Under the pieces are notes generated by a model. That model saw only the letters and a list, made by a program, of their open reading frames with translations, did no database searches and was not told the origin of the DNA. Shown in pieces: positions 1,731 through 32,000 of a DNA stretch of 32,000 nucleotides (positions within the stretch are counted from its first letter, which is position 1; the number at the start of each line of letters is the position of its first letter). The DNA comes from Alkanindiges illinoisensis DSM 15370 (GTDB taxonomy: Bacteria; Pseudomonadota; Gammaproteobacteria; Pseudomonadales; Moraxellaceae). The stretch spans positions 1 to 32,000 of the forward strand of contig NZ_JHUX01000011.1 of assembly GCF_000619845.1 (NCBI RefSeq), read 5' to 3'. The translations under genes and the position numbers were made by a program.

Positions 1731-2106
1731 CTACTGGATTAATATTTTCTGGCTTGTTTTTGGGTTCAATTGTCCGTTCTTCCTGCATTTCCTTCATTAA
1801 AAAGAAATTTAAACCTGTCCGAATAATGGCAATCGCTGCCAGTTTGCCAATTTGTTCCCAACTGGGTGATACGGCGGTTGATAAAATATCGGCAGCCAGT
1901 TGAAACTCCAGGCCTAAAGCCAGATAACGCGCGAAGATAAGTCGAACCGGTGTAAAACCATCAGGATGGCGGCTAACAAAAGCTTTTAAAAATCCATAGA
2001 GAGCCGCGAAAATACCAAAGGCAATAATGAGCGCGCCAACGCTTTCCACCATCAGGCGCAACCAGCTTACGGCTTGAATGACAAAGGTTTCGGTTTGCTC
2101 GAACAT
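1693..2106 (-). CDS. DUF1622-type small membrane protein
   Basis: 137 aa with predicted TM helices and the ARYLALGLEFQLAADIL motif I associate with DUF1622. Its 3' end overlaps the bioF 3' end by 38 bp. Confidence 0.7.
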   Translation of the reverse strand: MFEQTETFVIQAVSWLRLMVESVGALIIAFGIFAALYGFLKAFVSRHPDGFTPVRLIFARYLALGLEFQLAADILSTAVSPSWEQIGKLAAIAIIRTGLNFFLMKEMQEERTIEPKNKPENINPVVIEAKPDEQPRH

Positions 2107-2146
2107 AAATTAAGATGCCTTAAGTTTTAATTTAGGGCTTAGAAAG

Positions 2147-2887
2147 TTAAAGGGGATTATTTGTGAGAATTTTAGCCATTTTAAGATACTTTTTACGTCC
2201 AGTAAAATCTGTCATTGTTAAAGGATAAGGGGTTAGACACTTTGCACAAGCAGCATAATTTACTAAATGCTCTGTAGAAAATTTAAAAAACTTAAACTTA
2301 GTTACTGGTAACCATTCTATTTTAGTTTCTATTGTTAATTTCCCAATATATTTACAACTCTCACAGTAGCTGAGTTGCCAGAAATTTTCAGGAAGCTTTA
2401 ATTCTAAAAGTTGCAAGAACTGTTCAGCGAATTCTTTAATATAGGTGCTTTGATTTTCTTTAGTCAGTCCACTATTCCAGAAAGCACCATGCTCTTCATT
2501 TTCAATAAAATAGATATCCTCACTTAATTCATCCCAGATTCTAAATAAGGGTTCTTCATAGTCTGTTAGTGACCATAAACGACTTAAGTCATCAATTGCT
2601 TTTTTTACTAAAATATTTTCTTGCAATAATTCTATGCAAAGCTGCTTGGCATAAATTTTTAGAGCTTTTTCCCTAGTAGGCAATTTAAGCTTCAATTCGG
2701 AAAGACATTTTTCAAAATATGTTTCAATTTCATATTTATCAATATTTTTATCTAATCCAAAACTGGCAAGAATCATAATATTTTCACTTTCATTACCCTG
2801 ATCCAATAAGGATTCTGCCCAGTCGCTGTAATTACGTAGTTGAACACTCCCAAAAGCTATTTTTGCAGTAAGCATTTCAATATTCAT
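2147..2887 (-). CDS. Hypothetical protein on a low-GC islet, with a C-terminal CxxC...CxxC pair
   Basis: 246-aa ORF. Sampled 60-nt lines have 14-17 G+C, against 33 of 60 in the flanking EamA gene. Helical acidic N-terminal part. C-terminal CESC...CAKC suggests a zinc ribbon. No family recognised. Confidence 0.55.
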   Translation of the reverse strand: MNIEMLTAKIAFGSVQLRNYSDWAESLLDQGNESENIMILASFGLDKNIDKYEIETYFEKCLSELKLKLPTREKALKIYAKQLCIELLQENILVKKAIDDLSRLWSLTDYEEPLFRIWDELSEDIYFIENEEHGAFWNSGLTKENQSTYIKEFAEQFLQLLELKLPENFWQLSYCESCKYIGKLTIETKIEWLPVTKFKFFKFSTEHLVNYAACAKCLTPYPLTMTDFTGRKKYLKMAKILTNNPL

Positions 2888-2916
2888 TTTCTCAAATTAT
2901 CTCTATCAATCACTAC

Positions 2917-3807
2917 TCAAGCCCAAATCACCAGCACCGCCCCCAGCATCACCAGCCACAATCCCGCATGATCAGTTTTTACCAGTTTTTCCTTAAAGAA
3001 GTAAAGGGAAATCAACAAGGTAAACAGCACCTCAATTTGCCCCAAGGTTTTGACCAAAGGCACCGACTGCAAACTCATGGCACTAAACCAGCCCAGTGAC
3101 CCCAAAAAACTGGCCAGGCTCACCCGTGCCGTTAAACCTTTGCGCTGTCGCATGGCGGTTAGCGTTTGCGGACTTTTTATAGACAGCCAGACCAGCAATA
3201 GCAAGTTTTGCAAGCTAATGGCACAAAACAACACCCAGCCCGCACGATGCAAAAACGGCAACTGGCTTAGCTCAAGACTGGCTTCCCGCACCATTAACGA
3301 GGCAATGGCAAAACACAGGCCACTGGCAAGCCCTGTCCACAGCGTTGGCCATGACAGTGTGGCCATGGAACGCGCACCACTCAGTAAAAATACCGCGACT
3401 GCGCCTACCAGTACACCCAGCCAGCCCAGCCAAGACAACTGCACACCCAGCACGGCTACCCCAATAATAGCGGCCAGAATCGCTTCACTTTTGGCTAGGC
3501 CTACCCCAATGGCGTAGTTTTTTTGCTGAAACAGTTTCACCATGAGTACTGTGGCCAGAATCTGGCTCACCGCCACCATACCAATATACAGCCAGAAGCG
3601 AGCTCCAAAACTGCTTATGGAGATTGAATGGGCCACTGGCTGAAAGTGATACAGCAATAGCAAATACAATATAGCCAGCGGCGTTGCACCAATAAAGCGT
3701 GCCAGCGTAACGCCATAGGCATCTACGGTGGTGCTAAGCTGCTTTTGAAAAGCATTGCGCCAGGCCTGCATAAATGCAGCCATGATGGTAAAGAAAATCC
3801 AAGTCAC
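2917..3807 (-). CDS. EamA/DMT-family transporter (10-TM type)
   Basis: 296 aa, highly hydrophobic, with the two-fold EamA-like repeat architecture. Confidence 0.8.
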   Translation of the reverse strand: MTWIFFTIMAAFMQAWRNAFQKQLSTTVDAYGVTLARFIGATPLAILYLLLLYHFQPVAHSISISSFGARFWLYIGMVAVSQILATVLMVKLFQQKNYAIGVGLAKSEAILAAIIGVAVLGVQLSWLGWLGVLVGAVAVFLLSGARSMATLSWPTLWTGLASGLCFAIASLMVREASLELSQLPFLHRAGWVLFCAISLQNLLLLVWLSIKSPQTLTAMRQRKGLTARVSLASFLGSLGWFSAMSLQSVPLVKTLGQIEVLFTLLISLYFFKEKLVKTDHAGLWLVMLGAVLVIWA

Positions 3808-3890: not shown

Positions 3891-4607
3891 CTACTGCGGA
3901 TATACGCCCCAATAAACCTCAGTTTTATCTGTACAATAAAAACCTTCAAGCGGTGAAAATTGTAAAATCTTCTCTATTATTTCTTTTGATCCACATAGAA
4001 AGGAACAATGACTATCCCAATGGGCTGTCACTAAAACCTTATAATCAGGTGTAAAAATGCAACCATTTGCTGGTATCTTGTCTTCATCAAAAAGATCCTC
4101 TATCCAGTACAGTTTTCTTTCAGTCCCTAGATCATCACCAAGCCAGACCCACTCATATCCCAACTCGACCAGTGCATGATAAATATAATTTTCTACATAC
4201 TCAGAAATAACGCCATCTCTTGGCTCCCATATATCTTCAGCATGTAAATAATCTATTAACTGCCTGGAAAGGTGCTCATTTTTATATTTGGCATTAAGAC
4301 CATGAATCATTGTTCTCAGCGCGATATCCACATCTGCTAGACTTTGGAAACCCAAAGCTTGCCGGACATCCTCCCATGAAATCGGTTCCATACCATTTAG
4401 TATTTCCTGTTTGGTTGGAAAATTACTGTCCAAAAAATCACTGTTTTTTAATTTGATAGGATTTAGAAAAGGATGTAAAACAATATATACCTCATCAAAC
4501 TGCCCGGCATAATATTCTTTAATTCTCCCATCAATAGGACAAGAAGCATATTTCGGCTGTTCCGGCAAAATTCTGTCTTTTATGCGCTTCTTTCTGTTGT
4601 TAAGCAT
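3891..4607 (-). CDS. Hypothetical cytoplasmic protein on a low-GC islet
   Basis: 238-aa ORF with GAGG 5 nt upstream of the ATG. Sampled lines have 15-23 G+C of 60. No TM helix or signal peptide. No family recognised. Confidence 0.55.
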   Translation of the reverse strand: MLNNRKKRIKDRILPEQPKYASCPIDGRIKEYYAGQFDEVYIVLHPFLNPIKLKNSDFLDSNFPTKQEILNGMEPISWEDVRQALGFQSLADVDIALRTMIHGLNAKYKNEHLSRQLIDYLHAEDIWEPRDGVISEYVENYIYHALVELGYEWVWLGDDLGTERKLYWIEDLFDEDKIPANGCIFTPDYKVLVTAHWDSHCSFLCGSKEIIEKILQFSPLEGFYCTDKTEVYWGVYPQ

Positions 4608-15018: not shown

Positions 15019-15939
15019 TTAGTGGCCTTGCTCAATCATGCGTTGCCCGGCCACCTGCTTGGCAAACTGCATGGCAACCCGGCCAGAACGGTTGCCCTTT
15101 TGCGTGGCCCATTGCAATGCTAACTTTTCCTGTGCCTTGATGTCTTCATCAGACCAGCCAAAGCGGCTAAGCCAGGCATGGATCAGGTTTAAATATTCCT
15201 GTTGGCTAAAACCATAAAAGGTAATTTGCAGGCCAAAACGATCTGCCAAAGATACTTTTTCCTCGATACTGTCGCCCGGATGAATTTCGCCATCTGGACT
15301 TTGATGGTATTCCAGATTATCGCGGTTTTTTTCCACCATGAGATGCTTACGGTTGGACGTGGCATAAATCAGTACATTGCTGGAAGGCCCGGCAATTGAA
15401 CCATCCAGCACGGTTTTTAGCCCGGCATAGCTGGTATCACCTTCTTCAAACGACAGGTCATCACAGAAAATAATAAACTTTTCCGGACGGTTATTAATGG
15501 CCGCCACAATACGCGGCAAGTCATTTAAAAACTTTTTTTCTACTTCAATCACACGCAAGCCCAGCGTATGAAATTCCTTAAGGCAGGCCTTAACCAGTGA
15601 AGATTTTCCCGTACCGCGTGCACCGGTGAGCAGCACATTATTGGCAAAAAATCCCTTCACAAACTGTTCGGTATTCTGGCGAATTTTTAACTGCTGCTTG
15701 TCCACATTGCACAGGGCATCAAACTCAATCAATTGCGGCTGGTGCAAGGGAATAAAGCCAGCACTTTGTAGCAGGCCCTCGGTCTTTTCCCAGCGAAAGG
15801 CTATGGCGGTATCCAGCACCGCAGTATCCGGCACTACCGAGGGAGAAAGATGGCCAAAAACCTGTGTCAATTGATCCAGCCGTGCAGTGAGCTGGGCAAT
15901 GGCATGAATTAAATCCTGTTCGCTACGTTTCTCAGTCAT
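15019..15939 (-). CDS. DUF815-type AAA ATPase
   Basis: Walker A GARGTGKSS and Walker B IIFCDDLSF, with the overall pattern of the DUF815 ATP-binding protein family. Start set at the internal ATG (MTEKRSEQ); the ORF track starts at 15975. Confidence 0.75.
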   Translation of the reverse strand: MTEKRSEQDLIHAIAQLTARLDQLTQVFGHLSPSVVPDTAVLDTAIAFRWEKTEGLLQSAGFIPLHQPQLIEFDALCNVDKQQLKIRQNTEQFVKGFFANNVLLTGARGTGKSSLVKACLKEFHTLGLRVIEVEKKFLNDLPRIVAAINNRPEKFIIFCDDLSFEEGDTSYAGLKTVLDGSIAGPSSNVLIYATSNRKHLMVEKNRDNLEYHQSPDGEIHPGDSIEEKVSLADRFGLQITFYGFSQQEYLNLIHAWLSRFGWSDEDIKAQEKLALQWATQKGNRSGRVAMQFAKQVAGQRMIEQGH

Positions 15940-16067
15940 GTTGATCTCAATGCTCCACTCTGGCAAAACGGCCACCGGCTGACCGCCAATGTTTCTATTA
16001 TGCGGCTATTGGCTGCGATTGTATTGCGCTAAACTTTCAAAAATTGTCGCCAAAGCAACATTTGTTT

Positions 16068-17769: not shown

Positions 17770-19173
17770 TTAAAACGGTTCACCCTGCATGTTTTTTGGA
17801 GCCTGCCGGATCGTTTGCTGAATGGTCAGGTTTTCACTTTGCTCGGTGGTGGGAGTGGTGGTGATGACAGGTACAGGCTGGCTTACAGTACCTGTATTTG
17901 CTGCTGCGCTACCATTGCTAACTTGACCAGGCTGTTGGGCATTCTGCCTTAGCACTTGCAGGATACGCTGCCCGCCCCTTCCGGTTTGCGGCAAGCCAAA
18001 GCGCGCCTGTTCCTGCCGGATGGCTTGCCGGGTTTTGTCACCAATCAGGCCATCCGGTTCGCCAATATCATAGCCTTTGGCCAGCAAATATTGCTGGATT
18101 TCGCGACGTTCCGCCCGTGATGTACCCGGATCATCGGTTGGCCACGGGGTAACCAGCGGGCCTGCACCTTTAAGCCGATCAGATAAATGTGCAATGGCCA
18201 GTGCATAGCTTTCTGCGGCGTTGTAGCTATAAAACGCATCAAAGTTTTTAAATACCAGAAATACCGGGCCACTGGTATCTGAGGGAACCAGCAAGCCTGC
18301 CATGCTGGAGGTGCTTAAATTGTCCTGAACCAGGGGAGAGCCATCCACGCGGGTCAGGCCACGTTGCTGCCAGCTGGCCAGTGAGCGTTTAGTGCGCCTG
18401 CCCTCGCCGCTGCTATCAAACCCATCAGGCAAGCGAACTTCAAAGCCCCACGGCATGCCGTTTTGCCAGCCAGATTTCTTGAGAAAATTGGCGGTTGAAG
18501 CCAGTGCATCCGGCACGCTATCGACAATATCACGGCGGCCATCACCATCAAAATCCACTGCCAGACGCTCAAAGGTTGATGGCATAAACTGGGTATGACC
18601 AAATGCACCTGCCCATGAACCACGCAGGCGATCTTCGCTAATATGCCCAGCCTGCAGGATACGCAAGGCGGCATAGAGTTCGGTACGGAAGTAACCCTGA
18701 CGACGGCCGTAGCAGCTTAATGTGCCCAGTGCCTGCACCAGTGAATATTTCCCGGATATATCGCCAAAATTACTTTCTACGCCCCATACAGCCACTACAG
18801 CCGCAGGTTCCACCCCATATTGCGCCTGAATACGCTGCAGTGCATCCGCATACTGGGTCATTTTTTGGCGCCCTAGATCAACCCGTTCCTGATCCACCAG
18901 ACCTGACAAATAATCCCAGATGGGCGTACTAAATTCGGGCTGATAATTCAGTTTTTCAATTACGGTCATGTCCGGATCAAGGTTGGCCGTATACTGGTCA
19001 AACGCCTGCCCGGACACCCCGGCTGCAATCGCATCACCCCGCAAATTGCTTAAACAGCCCTGAAACTGGCTTTCAGCAAATTGGTCATCAGCAGCAAAAC
19101 CGCTTACAGGTATTGTCAGCATGCAAGCCATGGCCAATAGGGATAGTTTTTTGGTGATATCACTACGTTTCAT
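17770..19173 (-). CDS. Lytic murein transglycosylase (MltB/SLT_2 type) with a C-terminal PG_binding_1 domain
   Basis: Signal peptide. AVWGVESNFG catalytic-Glu region and GAFGHTQFMPSTF motif. C-terminal ..LLAKGYDIGEPDGLIGDKTRQAIRQEQ..GLPQTG peptidoglycan-binding repeat, then a low-complexity tail. Confidence 0.88.
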   Translation of the reverse strand: MKRSDITKKLSLLAMACMLTIPVSGFAADDQFAESQFQGCLSNLRGDAIAAGVSGQAFDQYTANLDPDMTVIEKLNYQPEFSTPIWDYLSGLVDQERVDLGRQKMTQYADALQRIQAQYGVEPAAVVAVWGVESNFGDISGKYSLVQALGTLSCYGRRQGYFRTELYAALRILQAGHISEDRLRGSWAGAFGHTQFMPSTFERLAVDFDGDGRRDIVDSVPDALASTANFLKKSGWQNGMPWGFEVRLPDGFDSSGEGRRTKRSLASWQQRGLTRVDGSPLVQDNLSTSSMAGLLVPSDTSGPVFLVFKNFDAFYSYNAAESYALAIAHLSDRLKGAGPLVTPWPTDDPGTSRAERREIQQYLLAKGYDIGEPDGLIGDKTRQAIRQEQARFGLPQTGRGGQRILQVLRQNAQQPGQVSNGSAAANTGTVSQPVPVITTTPTTEQSENLTIQQTIRQAPKNMQGEPF

Positions 19174-19392: not shown

Positions 19393-20219
19393 TTATTCTT
19401 GTGCGTGTAGTAACTGCGAAAATAACTGATTTAAGCGGGCAAGTGCGATAGGTTCCATATCCTGTGCCGGCATCACCTGCTGTAACCGCGCCAATTCGGC
19501 CTTAATCCATTGCTGTAACACGGGAATCGCTGGCTGTACTTCAGCCTCACCATGCTGGCGCTTTTGTACCAGTAAGGCATCAATCGCCTGTTGCACGGAA
19601 GTCTCATTTAATACCTGACGCAGCCGTTCAAACTCAATCGGTGCAACGCCGCCAAACTGTTCAATCCAGCGTACTGCCAGCAGCGGACGCAGTACATATA
19701 AGTATTTTTTCAGCCTGACCTGCTCTCCTTGCAAGAATTGTTGAAAATTGAAACTGGCAGTGCTGCGATAATGATAAAACCCACGTGCCTTATTGTAGTG
19801 CTGTGCAAGCAACTGTCGCGCCTGAACTGCATAACTACCCTGCTCACGATAAATAATGGGTGAATTTAACCATTCCACAATGGCCGGATTGCTTTTGGCT
19901 TGTAAGCGCAGTGCCTTACGCAAATCCCAACCATTGATATCGATTTCGTCAACAATAGGATATTCAATCACATCGCGGCGATCTTCCACATGAGCGATAT
20001 ATCGCGTAAGTCAAATACCAGTCCTGTGAGCAGAGATAAACAAAACGTACGTCCCTTTTACCAATAAAGTGTGCTATCAGGCGAATGAAAGCCTCAGGCA
20101 CGGCTACCTGATTCAATGGCATACAGAATTTTGACCTCATGTTTCTATTCAGCACGCAAAAGCCGCTGTTGAATTTCTTGATGCGCTGCTGCTGAGATGA
20201 CAGGATGAAAATCTGTCAT
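19393..20219 (-). pseudogene. Decayed nucleotidyltransferase gene (PF10127-like), with 2 in-frame stops and at least 2 frameshifts
   Basis: From the ATG at 20219 the minus strand reads MTDFHPVISAAAHQEIQQRLLRAE, TAG (20147-20145), KHEVKILYAIESGSRA, TGA (20096-20094) at the Trp of the GSRAWGF motif, then GFHSPDS. DVRFVY..QDWYL continues in a second frame. IAHVEDRRDVIEYPIVDEIDINGWDLRKAL... continues to 19393 in a third frame. Confidence 0.7.
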
Positions 20220-20242
20220 GTGTTATCCCAAACAATGATTAA

Positions 20243-20581
20243 AATAAATTCAAAATAAAATATTTAAATTTAAACCAGAACTTTTGAATTCAAATTTTTT
20301 ATACCCAGACATAATTTTTGAATTCAAAAATTTAAATTCATTTTGTGGCAGCAACTTTAAATTCAAATTTTATAGTTTTAAATTCATAATTCTTGGCTAA
20401 AAGCCGATTTTTTAGTAATGCCCATAGGCTCACAGTATAAAAAAATGAATTCAAAAGTTTAAATTTAAAACTTTGAATTCATTTCTAGTTCCCGCTTTTT
20501 AGCTAGTCAGACTTATCCACAATCTGTTAATTTTAACAGCTTTAGAATTTGAATTTGAAAATAAGGACTTTTAAATTCAAA
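20243..20581. repeat. Array of at least 12 copies of the AT-rich 12-mer TTTRAATTYAWA in a gene-free gap
   Basis: Copies start at 20243, 20263, 20283, 20317, 20331, 20356, 20377, 20444, 20458, 20472 and 20570, plus an inverted copy at 20548. Two are exact TTTGAATTCAAA palindromes (20283, 20317). Tandem 14-bp phasing occurs at 20317/20331 and 20444/20458/20472. Confidence 0.85.
20513..20521 (+). promoter_or_regulatory. Perfect consensus DnaA box TTATCCACA
   Basis: Exact 9/9 match read from the sequence. Sits 28 bp after the third tandem 14-mer and is followed by the palindrome CTGTTAATTTTAACAG (20524-20539). Confidence 0.6.
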
Positions 20582-20607
20582 TAAAACCATGAAAAATATT
20601 ACTGACT

Positions 20608-20616
20608 TGTGGATAA
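20608..20616 (-). promoter_or_regulatory. Perfect consensus DnaA box (TGTGGATAA on the + strand), inverted relative to the first
   Basis: Exact 9/9 match. Centre-to-centre distance to the first box is 95 bp. Lies 29 nt upstream of the GFA-family gene ATG. Confidence 0.6.
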
Positions 20617-20644
20617 CTACTGATAATTGATCTAAGAGGGCACT

Positions 20645-21040
20645 ATGTATTCTGGAACCTGTTTGTGCGGTAGTGTGGCATATCAGATTCATGGCGAAAT
20701 TGGTGAGGTGGTGATTTGCCATTGCCAGCGTTGCCGCAAAGCCAATGGCAGTGCTTATGCGGTGAATGCCCCCATTAAATGTGCAGATTTTGAGTTAGTC
20801 AAAGGCGAAACCAGCTTAAAGGAATTTTGTTCAAGCCCCGGTGTACACCGGGTGTTTTGTGGCAATTGCGGTGCGCCGATTTATAGCAAGCGCGACAATG
20901 ACCCAGTACATTATCGCTTGCGCTTGGGCACACTAGACACACCACTCACCCATGGCCCAAGTATGCATATTTTTGCCGCATCCAAAGCCGAATGGAATGT
21001 AGTTTGCGATGGCTTGCCACAATATGCAGAACGGCCTTAA
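20645..21040 (+). CDS. GFA-family (CENP-V / glutathione-dependent formaldehyde-activating fold) zinc protein
   Basis: 131 aa with CLCGSV...CHCQRCRKANGSAY...FCGNCGAPI cysteine motifs typical of GFA. RBS-like AAGAGGG upstream. Confidence 0.85.
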   Translation: MYSGTCLCGSVAYQIHGEIGEVVICHCQRCRKANGSAYAVNAPIKCADFELVKGETSLKEFCSSPGVHRVFCGNCGAPIYSKRDNDPVHYRLRLGTLDTPLTHGPSMHIFAASKAEWNVVCDGLPQYAERP

Positions 21041-21086
21041 TGGCTTTCAAGTCTAGCGTTTAAAACTGGTTTTGATTAATTTTAGG

Positions 21087-21116
21087 CAAAAAAGAAGGTG
21101 GCAGGAGCCACCTTTG
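21087..21116 (-). terminator. Intrinsic terminator for purEK
   Basis: On the minus strand, AAGGTGGC - TCCT - GCCACCTT followed by CTTTTTT. About 125 nt downstream of the purK stop. Confidence 0.75.
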
Positions 21117-21239
21117 AAAGAGGGTTTGGTCGATGTGCCCCATCGAAAGGGTGTAACAAACTAAACTAGCCGTTCACGTTACCATTATAAAATGGTAAGA
21201 CACAAAAACCAAAAAAATTGTCTAACAAGACCGTGTTTT

Positions 21240-22415
21240 TTAGACCTCATCTGCCAGTGGAATCACCATATCTGCTGTGAGTGCCAATGGTTCTGGCAAC
21301 AGAGTAGCAAGTTGCTGACACAACTGACTTAACTGGCGGCTGTCTACGGGCATCAGGGTGATATGACCCAGCTTGCGCCCGGCACGCTCGGTTTTGCCAT
21401 AGAGATGCAAATGCGCACCTTCCAGCGCCAGAATGTCGGTGCTGCTAGGATGCTGGCCAATAATATTAACCATCACGGTGGGCTTCACCAATGCCGTTGA
21501 ACCCAGCGGCAAGCCTGCAACCGCACGCATGTGGTTTTCAAACTGCGAACACACGGCACCTTCAATGCTCCAGTGCCCGGAATTATGCACCCGTGGTGCC
21601 ATTTCATTGGCAAACAGGCCCTGTTCAGTCACAAACAGTTCCAGCGTGAGCACGCCGACATAATTCAAATGATTCAGCAGGCGGGTAATATAATCAGTGG
21701 CAATCGGCTGCAAATCCTGACTGTGCGGCGCTGGCACAATCGAATGCGATAAAATGCCTTGATGGTGATGGTTTTCAGCCAGTGGCCAGGTGCGCACTTC
21801 ACCATCCTGCCCACGCACTGCAATAATCGACACTTCACGGCTAAAACGCACAAAGCTTTCGGCAATCAGTGGGGCAGCCTTGCCCAGCTCTGCCCAGGCC
21901 TGCTCAATTTGCATTGTTTCACGGATTACAAACTGGCCCTTACCGTCATAGCCACCAGTTGCGGTTTTTACCACCAAGGGCAAACCCTGTTGTGTGGCAG
22001 CGTGTTGCAGGTCGGCCAATGAATGGATGGCTGAATACGGTGCCACGGGAATGCCAAGCTGGTCAAACAGCGCCTTTTCTGACAACCGATGCTGGGCAAT
22101 GGCCAGAGCCTGTCGCGGTGGATACAGGGTTTTGTGCTGGGTTAGTGCATCGGCATCAGCCAGTGGCGTATTCTCAAACTCAAGGCTAAATACATCCGCA
22201 CTGTCCATAAAGGTTTGCAGGGCATTGGCTTGTGTGTTGTCAATTACCCGACCTAGCGCTGCTGACGGGCACTCGCTTCCAGCTTCATAAAAAGTACATT
22301 TTACCCCGAGCGGCAACGCAGCCTGTGCCAGCATTCGTCCCAACTGGCCGCCACCAAAAATACCCACTGTCTTGACCATCGGGGAGTTGCTGCCTAGATT
22401 TTTTATGGTTGCCAT
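21240..22415 (-). CDS. purK: N5-carboxyaminoimidazole ribonucleotide synthase
   Basis: ATP-grasp protein starting ..VGIFGGGQLGRMLA. Start placed at the ATG at 22415, 10 nt after the purE stop; the ORF track starts at 22505, inside purE. An alternative ATG is at 22379. Confidence 0.9.
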   Translation of the reverse strand: MATIKNLGSNSPMVKTVGIFGGGQLGRMLAQAALPLGVKCTFYEAGSECPSAALGRVIDNTQANALQTFMDSADVFSLEFENTPLADADALTQHKTLYPPRQALAIAQHRLSEKALFDQLGIPVAPYSAIHSLADLQHAATQQGLPLVVKTATGGYDGKGQFVIRETMQIEQAWAELGKAAPLIAESFVRFSREVSIIAVRGQDGEVRTWPLAENHHHQGILSHSIVPAPHSQDLQPIATDYITRLLNHLNYVGVLTLELFVTEQGLFANEMAPRVHNSGHWSIEGAVCSQFENHMRAVAGLPLGSTALVKPTVMVNIIGQHPSSTDILALEGAHLHLYGKTERAGRKLGHITLMPVDSRQLSQLCQQLATLLPEPLALTADMVIPLADEV

Positions 22416-22425
22416 GCTGTCAGCC

Positions 22426-22950
22426 TTATTGCGTTTGACCGGGAATATTGTTGCTGCTGACTTTCTCAGTTTGGGCCAGCCTGAACTGCTGTACCGCTTC
22501 AGCAATGGCCGGGTTGTTTAAGCCCAGAATCTGTGCGGCTAAAATGGCTGCATTGGTGGCACCAGCCTTGCCAATGGCCAGCGTTCCCACGGCAATGCCT
22601 GCCGGCATTTGTACAATAGACAATAGCGAATCCACGCCATTTAAAATGGATGACTGCACAGGCACGCCCAGCACTGGCAAATCGGTTTTGGCGGCACACA
22701 TGCCCGGTAAATGCGCTGCGCCACCTGCCCCGGCAATAATCACCTGAATGCCACGCGCACGTGCTGTTTCAGCATATTCAAACAAACGGTCCGGCGTACG
22801 GTGCGCGGACACCACTTCGGCTTCAAACGGCACATTGAGCTGCTTAAGCATGTTGGCAGTGTGTTCAAGCGTCGCCCAGTCAGACTGAGAGCCCATGATA
22901 ATTCCAACCAGCGGCGGGTTGGCAGGGTTAACGGACGAGTTCATAAGCAC
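22426..22950 (-). CDS. purE: N5-CAIR mutase (class I PurE)
   Basis: [11 protein letters not shown]...SAHRTPD...[14 protein letters not shown] motifs. Confidence 0.93.
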
Positions 22951-28393: not shown

Positions 28394-28793
28394 TATTTCC
28401 ATGCGTTTAAAAGTCATGTAGGTCTGATCATTAAAGCTGCGAGAACCTGACTTTGATTTTCTCTACAAGTAATCAGGCTTGCATGACTAAAAGGCTTTAT
28501 TGAGCTTATAAATTTAAAGATTAAAGTCTTTATTGAAGTAAACCTATCTATTAATAAGGCGTTAAATTTTTATTTGCACGACTGGTTTTTGCAGCTCAGG
28601 TCTATTTAGTTCAATGATTGTTAACTTAATTTAATACACTGTTATTTAAAGCAGAAATTGTTATATAACGCTACATTAATTGCCAATTCTTCACCTAACC
28701 CCTTTAAAACGTGAGTTAAAATCTTACAAATTATTTATTTTCATGCCCTAGTCTTTAGTTTTACACGTGTATATAGCAAATAGAGGAAAGGTT

Positions 28794-29476: not shown

Positions 29477-30829
29477 TTATTTGCCAATACAAAAACTGCC
29501 AAAAATCTTGCCCAGCAAATCATCTGCACTAAATTCACCGGTAATCTCACTTAATGCATTTTGCGCCAGACGCAAAGATTCTGCCATCAGTTCCCCGGCG
29601 TGAAATTCAACCAGCTGAACACGAGCATCAGCCAGATGTTGCTGGCAGCGCACCATTGCGTCCAGATGCCGTGTCCGGGCAATAAAGGTACTTTCCTCGG
29701 GCTGATAGCCTGCATGCGCGCTAATCGCCTGTATGAGCGTATTAAGGCCATCACCTTGCCGTGCCGATAATATAATGCGCTTAAAGCCATTTAACTCATC
29801 CTGATGCGGGGTTTGTCCCGCCAGATCAGCCTTGTTGGCAATCAGCAATAATCGCTTAGGATCACGCTGGTGAAAAAATCCATCGGCCAGTGCCAGTGGA
29901 TCATTATCAGTGGTCAGGTCATAGACCAATAACAACAGGTCAGCCTGTTCAATTTCCCTATAAGCGCGCTTGATGCCTTCCTGCTCCACAATATCACCGG
30001 TTTCACGCAAGCCAGCAGTATCGGTCAGGGTAATGGGCAGGCCATTCAAGGTAATTCTTTCATGCAACACATCACGGGTGGTGCCGGCAATGTCGGTGAC
30101 AATAGCGCGATCAACCCCGGCCAAGGCATTCAGCAGGCTGGATTTTCCGGCATTGGGCTTGCCTGCAATCACCACCTGCAAGCCCTCACGCAATAACTGT
30201 CCCTGTTTGGCCGATTTTTGGACCTGGCTTACTGCCCCCTGTACTTGCTCCAGCAGGCTTAAAATCCGGCCATCCGCCAGAAAATCAATTTCCTCTTCGG
30301 GAAAATCAATGGCAGCTTCCACATGCAGGCGTAAATGAATGAGTTGCTCCAGAACTTCATTCACCCGCAGCGAAAAAGCACCTTGCAGGGAACGCACGGC
30401 CGAACGGGCAGCCGCTTCACTACTGGCATCAATCAGGTCACTAATGGCTTCTGCCTGCACCAGATCCATTTTGCCATTTTCAAAGGCACGCAGCGAAAAT
30501 TCACCTGCCTTGGCTGCCACAGCACCCAAACTCAATAAGCGCGCCAGTACCGCATTTTGCACCACCACCCCGCCATGTCCCTGTACTTCAACCACATCCT
30601 CACCAGTGAACGAATGGGGGGCTTTAAAGCACAGAATCAAGCCTTCATCAATCACCTCACCCTGTGCGTCCTTAAACTGGCGAAATCCGGCCATACGCGG
30701 TGCCGGCAGCGGCTTTGCTGTTAAAGCCTCAGCAATGGTAAAAGCATTGGGGCCTGACAGGCGGATAACACCAACACCGCCGCGTCCCTGAGGCGTGGCA
30801 ATTGCAGTAATCGTGGTGGTTAGCGTCAT
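29477..30829 (-). CDS. mnmE: tRNA modification GTPase MnmE
   Basis: 450 aa. N-terminal TIxAIATP.GRGGVGVIRLSG, G-domain GKPNAGKSSLLN and C-terminal CIGK. Confidence 0.95.
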   Translation of the reverse strand: MTLTTTITAIATPQGRGGVGVIRLSGPNAFTIAEALTAKPLPAPRMAGFRQFKDAQGEVIDEGLILCFKAPHSFTGEDVVEVQGHGGVVVQNAVLARLLSLGAVAAKAGEFSLRAFENGKMDLVQAEAISDLIDASSEAAARSAVRSLQGAFSLRVNEVLEQLIHLRLHVEAAIDFPEEEIDFLADGRILSLLEQVQGAVSQVQKSAKQGQLLREGLQVVIAGKPNAGKSSLLNALAGVDRAIVTDIAGTTRDVLHERITLNGLPITLTDTAGLRETGDIVEQEGIKRAYREIEQADLLLLVYDLTTDNDPLALADGFFHQRDPKRLLLIANKADLAGQTPHQDELNGFKRIILSARQGDGLNTLIQAISAHAGYQPEESTFIARTRHLDAMVRCQQHLADARVQLVEFHAGELMAESLRLAQNALSEITGEFSADDLLGKIFGSFCIGK

Positions 30830-30875
30830 AATCGCACCTCAGGTAAACAGGCGAATAAATGGTTTAACAGCTGGC

Positions 30876-30916
30876 ATAAAAAAACCGCCCAAGCGTATCA
30901 CTTCAGGCGGTTTTTA
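30876..30916 (-). terminator. Intrinsic terminator between yidC and mnmE, hairpin flanked by A and T runs
   Basis: AAAAAAACCGCC - loop - GGCGGTTTTT. On the minus strand the stem is followed by a T-run, 18 nt after the yidC stop. Confidence 0.7.
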
Positions 30917-30933
30917 AAAACACATAGCAGCAT

Positions 30934-32000
30934 TTAGCTGGTGGCTTTGGCTGCTGCTTCCCTGGCAATCGAACGATTAACCAGCCACTGCTGAAGAATG
31001 GTCAGCAGGTTATTGCAAATCCAGTACAGTACCAGTCCTGACGGGAAAAACAGCAGGAACACGGTAAAGATAATGGGCATAAGCTTGAACACCTTGGCCT
31101 GCATCGGATCAGTCGGCTGCGGGTTGAGCATTTGCTGCACATACATGGTAACACCCATGATCAGCGGCAAAATGAACAGCGGGTCCATGGCAGACAAATC
31201 CTGAATCCAGCCCAGCCACGGGGCATGACGCAGTTCCACGCTTTCCATCAGCACCCAGTACAGCGCCAGGAAAATCGGCATTTGTAGCAATAAAGGCAAG
31301 CAACCGGACAATGGATTAACCTGCTCTTTTTTGTACAGTGCCATCATTTCCTGCGAAAACTTCATGCGGTCTTCGCCATGCTCTTCTTTTAAGCGCTGCA
31401 TTTCCGGTGCAATCACCCGCATTTTGGCCATGGAGCGGTAACTTTTGGCTGATAGCGGAAACAGTACCAGTTTAACGGCACAGGTTAGCAGGATAATGGC
31501 CCAACCCCAGTTGCCTACAATACTGTAGAAGAATTTCAGTCCCATAAACAGGATCTGGGCAATGGGCCACAACCAGCCATAATCCACTGTCTGATTCAGA
31601 CCTGGTGCCAAATCCTTGAGCTTGGCTTGTACCTTGGGACCGGTATACAGCGTGGCACTAACGTCCATTTGCTTGCCAGCCGGAACATTAATCAGCGGGG
31701 TACGGAAACCAATCACATTGTCATTGCCAACCTTGCGTGATTCCAGCGTGGCATTGTACTTGGCATCTGGAATCCAGGCAGTGACAAAGTAATGCTGAAC
31801 CACGCCAACCCAACCGCCTTTGGCCTGCTGGCTTAAGCCATCACTCTGGAAGTCATCAAACTTGAGCTTGTTATACTGCTCGTCTGGCGTTCCCCACGCA
31901 CCACCCAGATAAGTTCCCAGCTGGAAAATACCCTGATGGCTCTTGCTGGGATCAGCACTGCTGTCACGCTTGATCTGGCCAAACATCTGGCCCTGCCATG
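30934..32000 (-). CDS. yidC: Membrane protein insertase YidC, C-terminal about 355 aa (5' end is beyond the window)
   Basis: Conserved YidC core (DYGWLWPIAQ.LF..L, GNWGWAIILLT, KSYRSMAKMR...P....LKE..G.D, NPLSGCLP.L.QMPIF.ALY). The frame stays open to the window edge. Confidence 0.93.
   Translation of the reverse strand, partial: WQGQMFGQIKRDSSADPSKSHQGIFQLGTYLGGAWGTPDEQYNKLKFDDFQSDGLSQQAKGGWVGVVQHYFVTAWIPDAKYNATLESRKVGNDNVIGFRTPLINVPAGKQMDVSATLYTGPKVQAKLKDLAPGLNQTVDYGWLWPIAQILFMGLKFFYSIVGNWGWAIILLTCAVKLVLFPLSAKSYRSMAKMRVIAPEMQRLKEEHGEDRMKFSQEMMALYKKEQVNPLSGCLPLLLQMPIFLALYWVLMESVELRHAPWLGWIQDLSAMDPLFILPLIMGVTMYVQQMLNPQPTDPMQAKVFKLMPIIFTVFLLFFPSGLVLYWICNNLLTILQQWLVNRSIAREAAAKATS

Follow-up and report, generated by a model that had tools for sequence, protein, structure and literature searches.

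The rlaP-gfa spacer and its neighbours

The window analysed here is a 32,000-nucleotide (nt) stretch of the Alkanindiges illinoisensis DSM 15370 genome (contig NZ_JHUX01000011.1, positions 1 to 32,000). Our analysis of this genome covered 40.8 kilobases (kb), made up of the window and an overlapping Logan contig, SRR3313971_53 (L001 and L082), which agrees with the window at all 12,500 bases of their overlap. Within the window, a 655-base-pair (bp) spacer between an rlaP-family gene and a GFA-family gene carries an array of 12-bp palindromes together with two perfect DnaA boxes. Its sequence and gene context make this element orthologous to Region 1 of the Acinetobacter baumannii chromosome, and it consists of a non-coding, origin-proximal array of candidate sites for the methyltransferase AamA joined to a DnaA box pair. 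The features of the element are given below, followed by those of the neighbouring genes.

19990-20644, no strand assigned: whole element, a 655-bp spacer of 31% guanine-plus-cytosine (GC) content between rlaP (leftward) and gfa (rightward), defined by the map of open reading frames (ORFs) and by base composition.
20243-20388, no strand assigned: Array I, seven 12-mers of the TTTRAATTYAAA type (AamA target motif), starting at 20243, 20263, 20283, 20317, 20331, 20356, and 20377.
20444-20483, no strand assigned: three 12-mers at 14-bp spacing (20444, 20458, 20472), which are the three 14-mers of the first-pass annotation.
20513-20521, plus strand: perfect DnaA box 1, TTATCCACA; a similarly spaced box pair is kept in 14 other loci.
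20524-20539, no strand assigned: imperfect palindrome CTGTTAA-TT-TTAACAG, with 7-bp arms and a mismatched central TT.
20542-20581, no strand assigned: three inter-box 12-mer sites, of which those at 20542 and 20548 overlap and the third is at 20570.
20608-20616, minus strand: perfect DnaA box 2, reading TGTGGATAA on the plus strand; box 1 is 95 bp away, and the gfa ATG follows after 28 nt.
19393-19989, minus strand: rlaP-family gene (PF10127), sitting between the element and mltB; not at this place in the Acinetobacter loci.
17770-19173, minus strand: gene for a lytic murein transglycosylase of the MltB_2 family (TIGR02283, 357 bits), a left-hand neighbour that is conserved in Acinetobacter.
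20645-21040, plus strand: GFA-family gene (gfa), not adjoining the element in the Acinetobacter loci.
21240-22950, minus strand: purK-purE, the conserved right neighbours of the element.
29477-32000, minus strand: mnmE and the 3' part of yidC, leading to rpmH and the real oriC just past the window end.

The DNA around the spacer has a GC content of about 47-50%. Within the spacer, the stretch at 20223-20342 has a GC content of 17% and is one of the two most AT-rich 120-bp intervals in the 40.8 kb. This stretch lies 170-290 bp off box 1, is made of AamA-type palindromes, and is as low in GC as the spacer between rpmH and dnaA. To the left, mltB is 0.8 kb from the element with rlaP in between, and it matches the gene named 'mltA' beside A. 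baumannii Region 1. An exact-sequence look-up for the RlaP protein of the window gave no record.

An array of AamA target sites

The 12-bp palindrome TTTRAATTYAAA was derived from the sequence as the consensus of a repeat family spread over 20243-20581. Sites were counted at a score of at least 10/12 against this consensus unless a mismatch limit is given. Over these 340 bp, the element contains 13 such sites, including six perfect copies and a total of eight copies with at most one mismatch. The whole window holds nine copies at this mismatch limit, where 1.05 +/- 1.05 are expected, and eight of the nine fall inside 20263-20581. Across the 40.8 kb, the sites are distributed among the element (13), the rpmH-dnaA spacer (five), and the other 39.3 kb (two). 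The sole near-match in the window outside the element is TATAAATTTAAA at 28507-28518, upstream of a DUF4142 gene. The bare core RAATTY is not depleted outside the element (62 observed vs 72 +/- 8 expected), and therefore specificity resides in the full 12-mer.

The first-pass annotation had described three tandem AT-rich 14-mers at 20444-20485 and compared them to the 13-mers that unwind in Escherichia coli oriC. These repeats are real, with Tandem Repeats Finder (TRF) reporting a period of 14 and 2.4 copies at 20448-20481. In addition, the 21-nt arms at 20443-20463 and 20464-20484 are 90% complementary, such that the three 12-mers form a 42-bp near-palindrome. However, the repeats are not a stand-alone tandem set, and they belong to the array of about 13 copies of the 12-bp palindrome. 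Their motif is the AamA recognition site, and an unwinding role for them is hypothetical.

The consensus derived from the window is identical, letter for letter, to the published target of AamA (A1S_0222), an orphan N6-adenine methyltransferase. Yang et al. (2023) assigned this target by single-molecule real-time (SMRT) sequencing of A. baumannii ATCC 17978 and an aamA deletion mutant, and counted 66 motif sequences on the chromosome in 12 regions (PMC10483419). The two densest of these are 19.4 kb apart. Region 1 (223,571-224,183) has 15 sites in about 610 bp and adjoins the lytic murein transglycosylase gene 'mltA', and Region 2 (243,566-243,940) is located at rnpA/dnaA (PMC10483419). In the first SMRT run, 38 of 59 methylated positions fell in one or the other of these two regions. 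In the aamA mutant, growth is slower and the expression of dnaA, rnpA, and pitA is 1.5-2.4-fold higher, and the transcript of the transglycosylase gene beside Region 1 is up 1.6-fold and is restored on complementation (PMC10483419). Furthermore, Vesel et al. (2023) reported TTTRAATTNA and TNTNAATTNAAA to be partially methylated in every A. baumannii strain tested (PMC10287943).

Region 12 of A. baumannii, which carries four AamA sites, neighbours a GFA-family gene and smtA (PMC10483419, Table S2), and gfa in the window adjoins the main element. The presence of gfa beside AamA-site clusters may be a coincidence or a recurrent association.

Two perfect DnaA boxes

An exact scan agrees with the first-pass annotation that TTATCCACA at 20513-20521 (plus strand) and its inverted counterpart TGTGGATAA at 20608-20616 are the sole perfect DnaA boxes in the window. 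Their start positions differ by 95 bp, or about nine helical turns. The assertion that two perfect boxes are unlikely to occur here by chance is likewise borne out, since none of 5000 shuffles of the 655-bp spacer gave two or more (mean 0.0046). Moreover, all seven perfect DnaA boxes of the 40.8 kb fall either in the element or in the rpmH-dnaA spacer.

Weaker matches do not add to this pair. Ten one-mismatch boxes occur elsewhere in the window, and the resulting total of 12 boxes with at most one mismatch is at chance level (8.0 +/- 2.8 expected). No third box with at most one mismatch is present within the element, and the spacer holds four matches when those with two mismatches are counted, where 2.6 +/- 1.5 are expected. 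The weaker boxes that had been proposed at 20223 and 20299 have two mismatches each and belong to this chance-level class. A 16-bp palindrome noted just after box 1 is indeed present as an inverted repeat, but it is interrupted by the mismatched TT and is not perfect over its 16 bp. This palindrome is not seen in the inter-box stretches of other loci.

Conservation of the module across Acinetobacter-type loci

The module lies between mltB and the 3' end of purK in at least four Acinetobacter species (L003-L006: A. amyesii, A. terrestris, A. bouvetii, and Acinetobacter sp. Ac_5812) and in at least 13 metagenome loci. One of the metagenome loci is partial and was left out of our table, which comprises 17 loci: the window, the four named genomes, and twelve metagenome loci, several of which are close relatives and hence not independent. 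Each of the 16 tabulated loci other than the window carries 7-14 perfect 12-mers and 1-4 perfect DnaA boxes. The Mpl protein of the window shares 78-79% identity with that of Acinetobacter species and with that of a Moraxellaceae metagenome-assembled genome (MAG), which marks the organism as a member of the Moraxellaceae related to Acinetobacter. The module is absent from more distant Moraxellaceae with purK-purE-mpl synteny (L007, L010, L011, and L014).

The metagenome scan searched for TTATCCACA followed by a 12-mer within 6-36 nt, and at least 120 stretches were listed. Among the matches listed, only two contexts recur, namely mltB-purK (class A) and rpmH-dnaA (class B). The spacers of class B, represented by at least about 14 loci, have one to five perfect 12-mers and mostly four to seven perfect boxes. 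Thus, the same two site types are used in both classes in reciprocal proportions. Most of the other stretches among the matches listed are single chance co-occurrences, with small clusters in L136, L141, and L165 as exceptions.

The cluster in L136 (Ga0172373_10032083, about 1240-1420) has three perfect TTTRAATTYAAA copies and two perfect boxes in the spacer just downstream of recF-gyrB, to the dnaA side of the origin, and some Acinetobacter-like genomes may accordingly carry satellite clusters on both sides of oriC. In L141 (RCUQ01000141.1, a 2-kb locus), three perfect 12-mers are followed by a convergent pair of perfect boxes at about 1540-1700, and a gene for an ABC-type ATPase adjoins them.

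A link to phages was considered and rejected. Triple-12-mer patterns in viral sequences are confined to loci of 16-31% GC, many of them giant-virus MAGs, and were judged unrelated. Essentially no DnaA boxes accompany these viral arrays, with one exception (L260). One viral locus, L237 (IMGVR_UViG_3300032242_002132, 3930-4270), has a large perfect inverted repeat with TTTAAA-type TTTAAATTTAAATTCAAA arrays at its centre, 18 perfect 12-mers, and no DnaA boxes. This structure, which is unrelated to the element, probably represents either a hairpin telomere or a fold-back created during assembly.

Two or more perfect boxes are present in 15 of the 17 tabulated loci, and all 15 have a pair that is 88-108 bp apart (94-95 bp in seven of them). 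Between the paired boxes of every one of these loci lie one to four 12-mers in sequence that is otherwise unrelated. The orientation of the boxes is convergent, tandem, or divergent depending on the locus. Their position also varies: some species have them close to mltB and others close to purK, and the purK terminator lies between the boxes in three loci. In the window organism, rlaP and gfa are inserted on either side and the module is intact. Because orientation, position, and neighbours vary while composition and spacing persist, we read the module as autonomous and apparently selected for its composition and spacing, a pattern at odds with a fixed promoter-operator geometry.

This variability bears on another view of the element, as an elaborate promoter or operator for the divergent gene (mltB; here rlaP-mltB and perhaps gfa) through which AamA and DnaA would couple cell-wall remodelling to the replication cycle. 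The leftward gene always begins at the edge of the element, and DnaA is known to act as a transcription factor in E. coli and Bacillus subtilis. The nearness of box 2 to the gfa ATG (28 nt) and the complemented 1.6-fold rise of the A. baumannii transglycosylase transcript in the aamA mutant (PMC10483419) are also in line with such a role. However, known promoter switches use far fewer sites than the 12-16 methylation sites and as many as four consensus boxes of the module, and the same combination of sites is otherwise found only at the origin among the matches listed. The distance from the boxes to the start of mltB or rlaP ranges between about 130 and about 650 bp among species, and in the three loci mentioned above the purK terminator separates the boxes. 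In the window, the module has been kept even though rlaP parts it from mltB, and gfa is not found at the other 16 loci. A scan for promoter consensus sequences was at chance level (5 found vs 3.6 +/- 2.0 expected). We therefore regard this explanation as unlikely. DnaA control of the GFA-family gene, one of the alternatives offered by the first-pass annotation, is disfavoured by the conservation of the box pair and the array in at least 16 other loci with no adjoining gfa.

Relationship to A. baumannii Region 1

The metagenome locus L140 provides the closest link between the module and Region 1. Its 12-mers are spaced at 64, 40, 26, 36, 25, 20, 144 ... bp, compared with 65, 40, 25, 37, 25, 20, 140 ... 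bp in Region 1. This locus has four perfect DnaA boxes, two of which stand back to back in a gap without 12-mers. Because L140 matches the 15-site spacing of Region 1 and has four boxes, Region 1 itself very probably contains consensus DnaA boxes. A text search of the report on Region 1 (PMC10483419) found no mention of oriC, nor of DnaA boxes in Region 1. The back-to-back arrangement, TGTGGATAA-NN-TTATCCACA, is located at 3931-3950 of L140 and also occurs in L143, L194, and L121, in each case within a 140-144-bp gap free of 12-mers. It is absent from the version in the window.

The window element and Region 1 have the same 12-mer and the same transglycosylase neighbour, and both lie on the rpmH side of rpmH-dnaA, at distances of 13 kb and 19.4 kb, respectively. 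Both arrays are dense, and that of the window is non-coding throughout. L140, which carries the 15-site pattern of Region 1, belongs to the mltB-purK family of the window element. The two differ in the number of sites (13 vs 15), in the extra flanking genes rlaP and gfa of the window, and in the number of boxes, which is two in the window vs four in the Region 1-like L140. Another difference is one of interpretation, in that Region 1 has been treated as a methylation hot spot that affects 'mltA' expression (PMC10483419).

The element and the chromosomal origin

The Logan contig continues past the window with the gene order yidC-yidD-rnpA-rpmH, an 823-bp spacer, and dnaA-dnaN-recF-gyrB. This rpmH-dnaA spacer corresponds to window-equivalent positions 33,554-34,376 (L082 6454-7276) and lies 13 kb to the right of the element, as anticipated by the first-pass annotation, which had placed the locus near the origin because yidC-mnmE usually leads to rpmH-dnaA. 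It contains five perfect and six one-mismatch DnaA boxes, a 120-bp stretch of 17% GC, and five 12-mers scoring at least 10/12. The gene blocks rpmH-to-mnmE and dnaA-to-gyrB diverge from it. By these features, the rpmH-dnaA spacer is a classical origin arrangement of the Pseudomonas type.

The corresponding spacer of the related MAG L002 (10626-10905) has nine perfect boxes within 280 bp and no perfect 12-mer. By eye, two overlapping one-mismatch 12-mers can be seen in its AT-rich part.

The first-pass annotation had favoured an oriC-like module at the element itself and named cumulative GC skew as a measure of this. Over the 40.8 kb, the cumulative skew falls through the window and reaches its minimum at about 34 kb, inside the rpmH-dnaA spacer and not at the element. 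Because local skew is dominated by gene orientation, we also used a strand-corrected skew at third codon positions (GC3 skew), which is the mean of the values for plus-strand and minus-strand genes on each flank. For the window organism and the four Acinetobacter species, in this order, the GC3 skew is -0.04, -0.17, -0.19, -0.13, and -0.20 on the left flank of the element, and -0.10, -0.14, -0.12, -0.11, and -0.14 on the right flank. Two metagenome loci in which each flank has genes on both strands gave -0.21 / -0.15 (L116) and, in reverse orientation, +0.17 / +0.19 (L137). Hence, the two flanks agree in sign in each of the seven loci that gave usable data, whereas the sign would flip across an origin. 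Around rpmH-dnaA the signs are opposite, with same-strand genes going from about 0 to between +0.10 and +0.25, a comparison that is confounded because the genes on the dnaA side all run in one direction. Any GC skew reflects long-term, historical usage only. Since the GC3 skew keeps its sign at the element in seven loci, the oriC reading is unsupported, and the element is probably not a long-term chromosomal origin.

Several observations nonetheless recall an origin, whether the element is viewed as a true oriC, as a second or conditional origin, or as the distant half of a bipartite origin. Its two perfect boxes are inverted like R1 and R4 of E. coli oriC, and its most AT-rich stretch equals that of the rpmH-dnaA spacer. 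The 13-mers of E. coli carry methylation sites, as do the AT-rich repeats here, and, as a further analogy, GATC sites are more numerous in E. coli oriC than in the dnaA promoter. The A. baumannii-like locus L140 reaches four perfect boxes, and a review states that the oriC of Acinetobacter calcoaceticus may be bipartite (PMC4451416). Against these stand the uniform skew on both flanks, the position of the cumulative minimum, and the divergence of the flanking gene blocks at the rpmH-dnaA spacer. An oriC would be expected to hold at least 3-5 consensus or near-consensus boxes, and the element has two perfect ones and none with a single mismatch. The rpmH-dnaA spacer, in contrast, has 11 boxes with at most one mismatch, and most relatives have four to seven perfect boxes there. 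Furthermore, a distance of 13-19 kb is too great for the halves of a bipartite origin, and extended homology between the element and the rpmH-dnaA spacer was not found. We therefore consider any of these origin functions very improbable.

A duplicated oriC was rejected for the last of these reasons, as a short-word blastn comparison of the element with the rpmH-dnaA spacer returned common motifs of 9-14 nt and no extended homology. A plasmid-derived origin or iteron array was also rejected, since a comparison with 72,556 plasmid records gave no match and the neighbourhood has no rep gene.

A candidate control locus for DnaA

We favour a model in which the element is an origin-proximal, DnaA-binding control locus that is gated by methylation, and we assign this a probability of roughly 45%. 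The proposed function is drawn by analogy from datA and from the DnaA-reactivating sequences (DARS). The first-pass annotation had listed a datA/DARS-type site among its alternatives. The conserved high-affinity boxes agree with this assignment, but the integration host factor (IHF) consensus and the three-box core of such sites are not present.

In this model, DnaA would bind the two high-affinity boxes. A replication fork leaving oriC would reach the element soon after initiation, and the whole palindrome array of about a dozen sites would become hemimethylated at once. The hemimethylated state, read by DnaA itself or by a putative reader protein, might then alter the amount of DnaA that is held or how DnaA is handled. 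The element could thereby serve as a replication-timed DnaA sink or as a DnaA-activity switch. Its functional analogue would be datA/DARS combined with the Dam/SeqA clock, using a different methylase and motif. A connection to replication is indicated in a relative, as the A. baumannii aamA mutant is slow-growing and has dnaA transcripts that are elevated 1.5-2.4-fold (PMC10483419).

Among known systems, datA is similar in being a non-coding cluster of high-affinity boxes that is outside oriC, near the origin, and duplicated early. Two essential boxes of datA are roughly 100 bp apart, and the perfect pair of our module is 88-108 bp apart in 15 of 15 loci with at least two boxes. In contrast, datA has about five boxes and requires an IHF site between boxes 2 and 3, is not a cluster of methylation sites, and has no sequence homology with the element.

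DARS1 and DARS2 are likewise small, non-origin box clusters with oppositely oriented boxes. The back-to-back box pair in L140, L143, L194, and L121 recalls the DARS core. That core comprises three close boxes including an inverted adjacent pair, whereas the boxes of the window element are 95 bp apart with no adjacent inverted pair. In addition, DARS2 needs both IHF and Fis.

The GATC clusters at oriC and at the dnaA promoter of E. coli offer a parallel in which palindromes for an orphan methylase accompany DnaA boxes both at the origin and at a single other locus nearby. In both systems, the sites are expected to be hemimethylated directly after initiation. However, Dam recognises a 4-bp sequence, GATC, at about 19,000 sites, whereas AamA recognises a rare, AT-rich 12-bp site, and the second locus here is neither an origin nor the dnaA promoter. 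In B. subtilis, DnaA binds to intergenic box clusters near oriC, which influence initiation and in some cases control a neighbouring gene. These are similar to the element in their intergenic, origin-near location, and differ in having more boxes and no associated methylation sites.

A number of points weigh against a DnaA control function. DnaA occupancy, the timing of hemimethylation, and an effect on initiation are all predictions from sequence. Only two perfect boxes are present in the window element and its weaker matches are at chance level, whereas datA and the B. subtilis clusters have more boxes. An IHF consensus (WATCARNNNNTTR, both strands) was not found between the boxes in the 15 loci, although the IHF preference in Acinetobacter may differ. 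Acinetobacter is not known to have a SeqA homolog or a SeqA-like reader of hemimethylated DNA. The closely related MAG L002 does not have the module beside purK, and so the module is dispensable in at least one relative. Methylation of the 12-mers has been demonstrated only in A. baumannii (PMC10483419, PMC10287943), and the 1.6-fold change of the transglycosylase transcript in the aamA mutant suits a plain promoter role equally well (PMC10483419).

The array could alternatively be a structural or segregation site, with the palindromes acting as a loading platform that organises, tethers, or sequesters the new origin region and the boxes being secondary. The binder might be a nucleoid protein, a reader of hemimethylated DNA, or AamA itself. 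In E. coli, SeqA-type sequestration and origin cohesion rely on clustered hemimethylated sites. The palindromic form of the sites is what dimeric binders would need, and the array is near the origin in two genera (13 kb here vs 19.4 kb in A. baumannii). Moreover, Region 1 is the densest cluster of a very rare motif, holding 15 of the 66 motif sequences of the A. baumannii chromosome within about 610 bp. However, we know of no candidate binding protein, and none is conserved beside the element. A box pair is also present in almost every locus at a constrained spacing, which argues that the boxes are integral and not incidental. For these reasons, a purely structural role seems quite improbable.

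A broader proposal can also be put forward tentatively. The Acinetobacter lineage might have independently evolved a methylation clock for initiation, based on a methylase specific for a 12-bp motif. The small number of its sites in the genome would be gathered mainly at oriC and at a dedicated satellite locus that acts as a hemimethylation-gated DnaA sink or reactivator with a putative reader, thus merging roles of the datA/DARS and SeqA types.

Other features of the window

The element does not correspond to a known RNA family, as Rfam gave only sub-threshold chance matches both for 19800-20800 and for the A. amyesii version. The window (21083-21160) and MAG L002 (2050-2130) have in common a conserved non-coding sequence located at the purK 3' end. 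A GC-rich hairpin (ggtggc...gccacc) is present there with agagggtttggtc...catcgaa after it, and the sequence might be a terminator together with a small RNA or regulatory leader. Ahead of the purK terminator, the Acinetobacter loci have another conserved sequence of about 90 nt (gataaacggtg...ggcgcaatgatgcc), and an Rfam scan of this sequence in L003 found nothing.

A gene for a DUF815 AAA+ ATPase (15019-15975) is located 4 kb to the left of the element. It has weak NCBIfam matches (E of about 1e-4) to IstB, Orc1/Cdc6, and Hda, which most likely reflect only the common AAA+ fold. This gene did not turn up beside the element in the Acinetobacter loci. Finally, the stretch at 2001-3000, which overlaps an ORF at 2147-2887, combines a GC content of 34% (vs about 47-50% around it) with a strongly negative GC skew, and might be a horizontal acquisition.

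Possible implications for initiation control in Acinetobacter

The hot spot of methylation sites has already been published (PMC10483419), and DnaA-box clusters at non-origin sites are likewise known. In the literature searched, we did not find the combination of the two site types, its conservation across the lineage, the constraint on box spacing, or the reciprocity with oriC. Beyond the methylome papers, no study of Acinetobacter oriC, datA, or DARS, and none of marker frequency or hemimethylation at this locus, was found.

For annotation, the locus is a warning that two perfect inverted boxes and AT-rich repeats near dnaA are insufficient to call an origin. It also permits the methylome data to be read anew, since the strongest AamA hot spot, which has been described as a transglycosylase regulator, very probably carries consensus DnaA boxes and, among the matches listed, shares its building blocks only with the origin. 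The control of initiation is poorly understood outside the groups that use Dam/SeqA (E. coli and relatives) and CcrM (Caulobacter and relatives), and Acinetobacter includes a priority pathogen. The module offers a compact and conserved target, in which about 600 bp hold 2-4 DnaA boxes along with roughly 12-16 methylation sites. It raises the question of whether AamA, whose loss slows growth and increases dnaA expression, acts via DnaA, and whether a chromosomal site other than the origin helps to time initiation in the Acinetobacter lineage.

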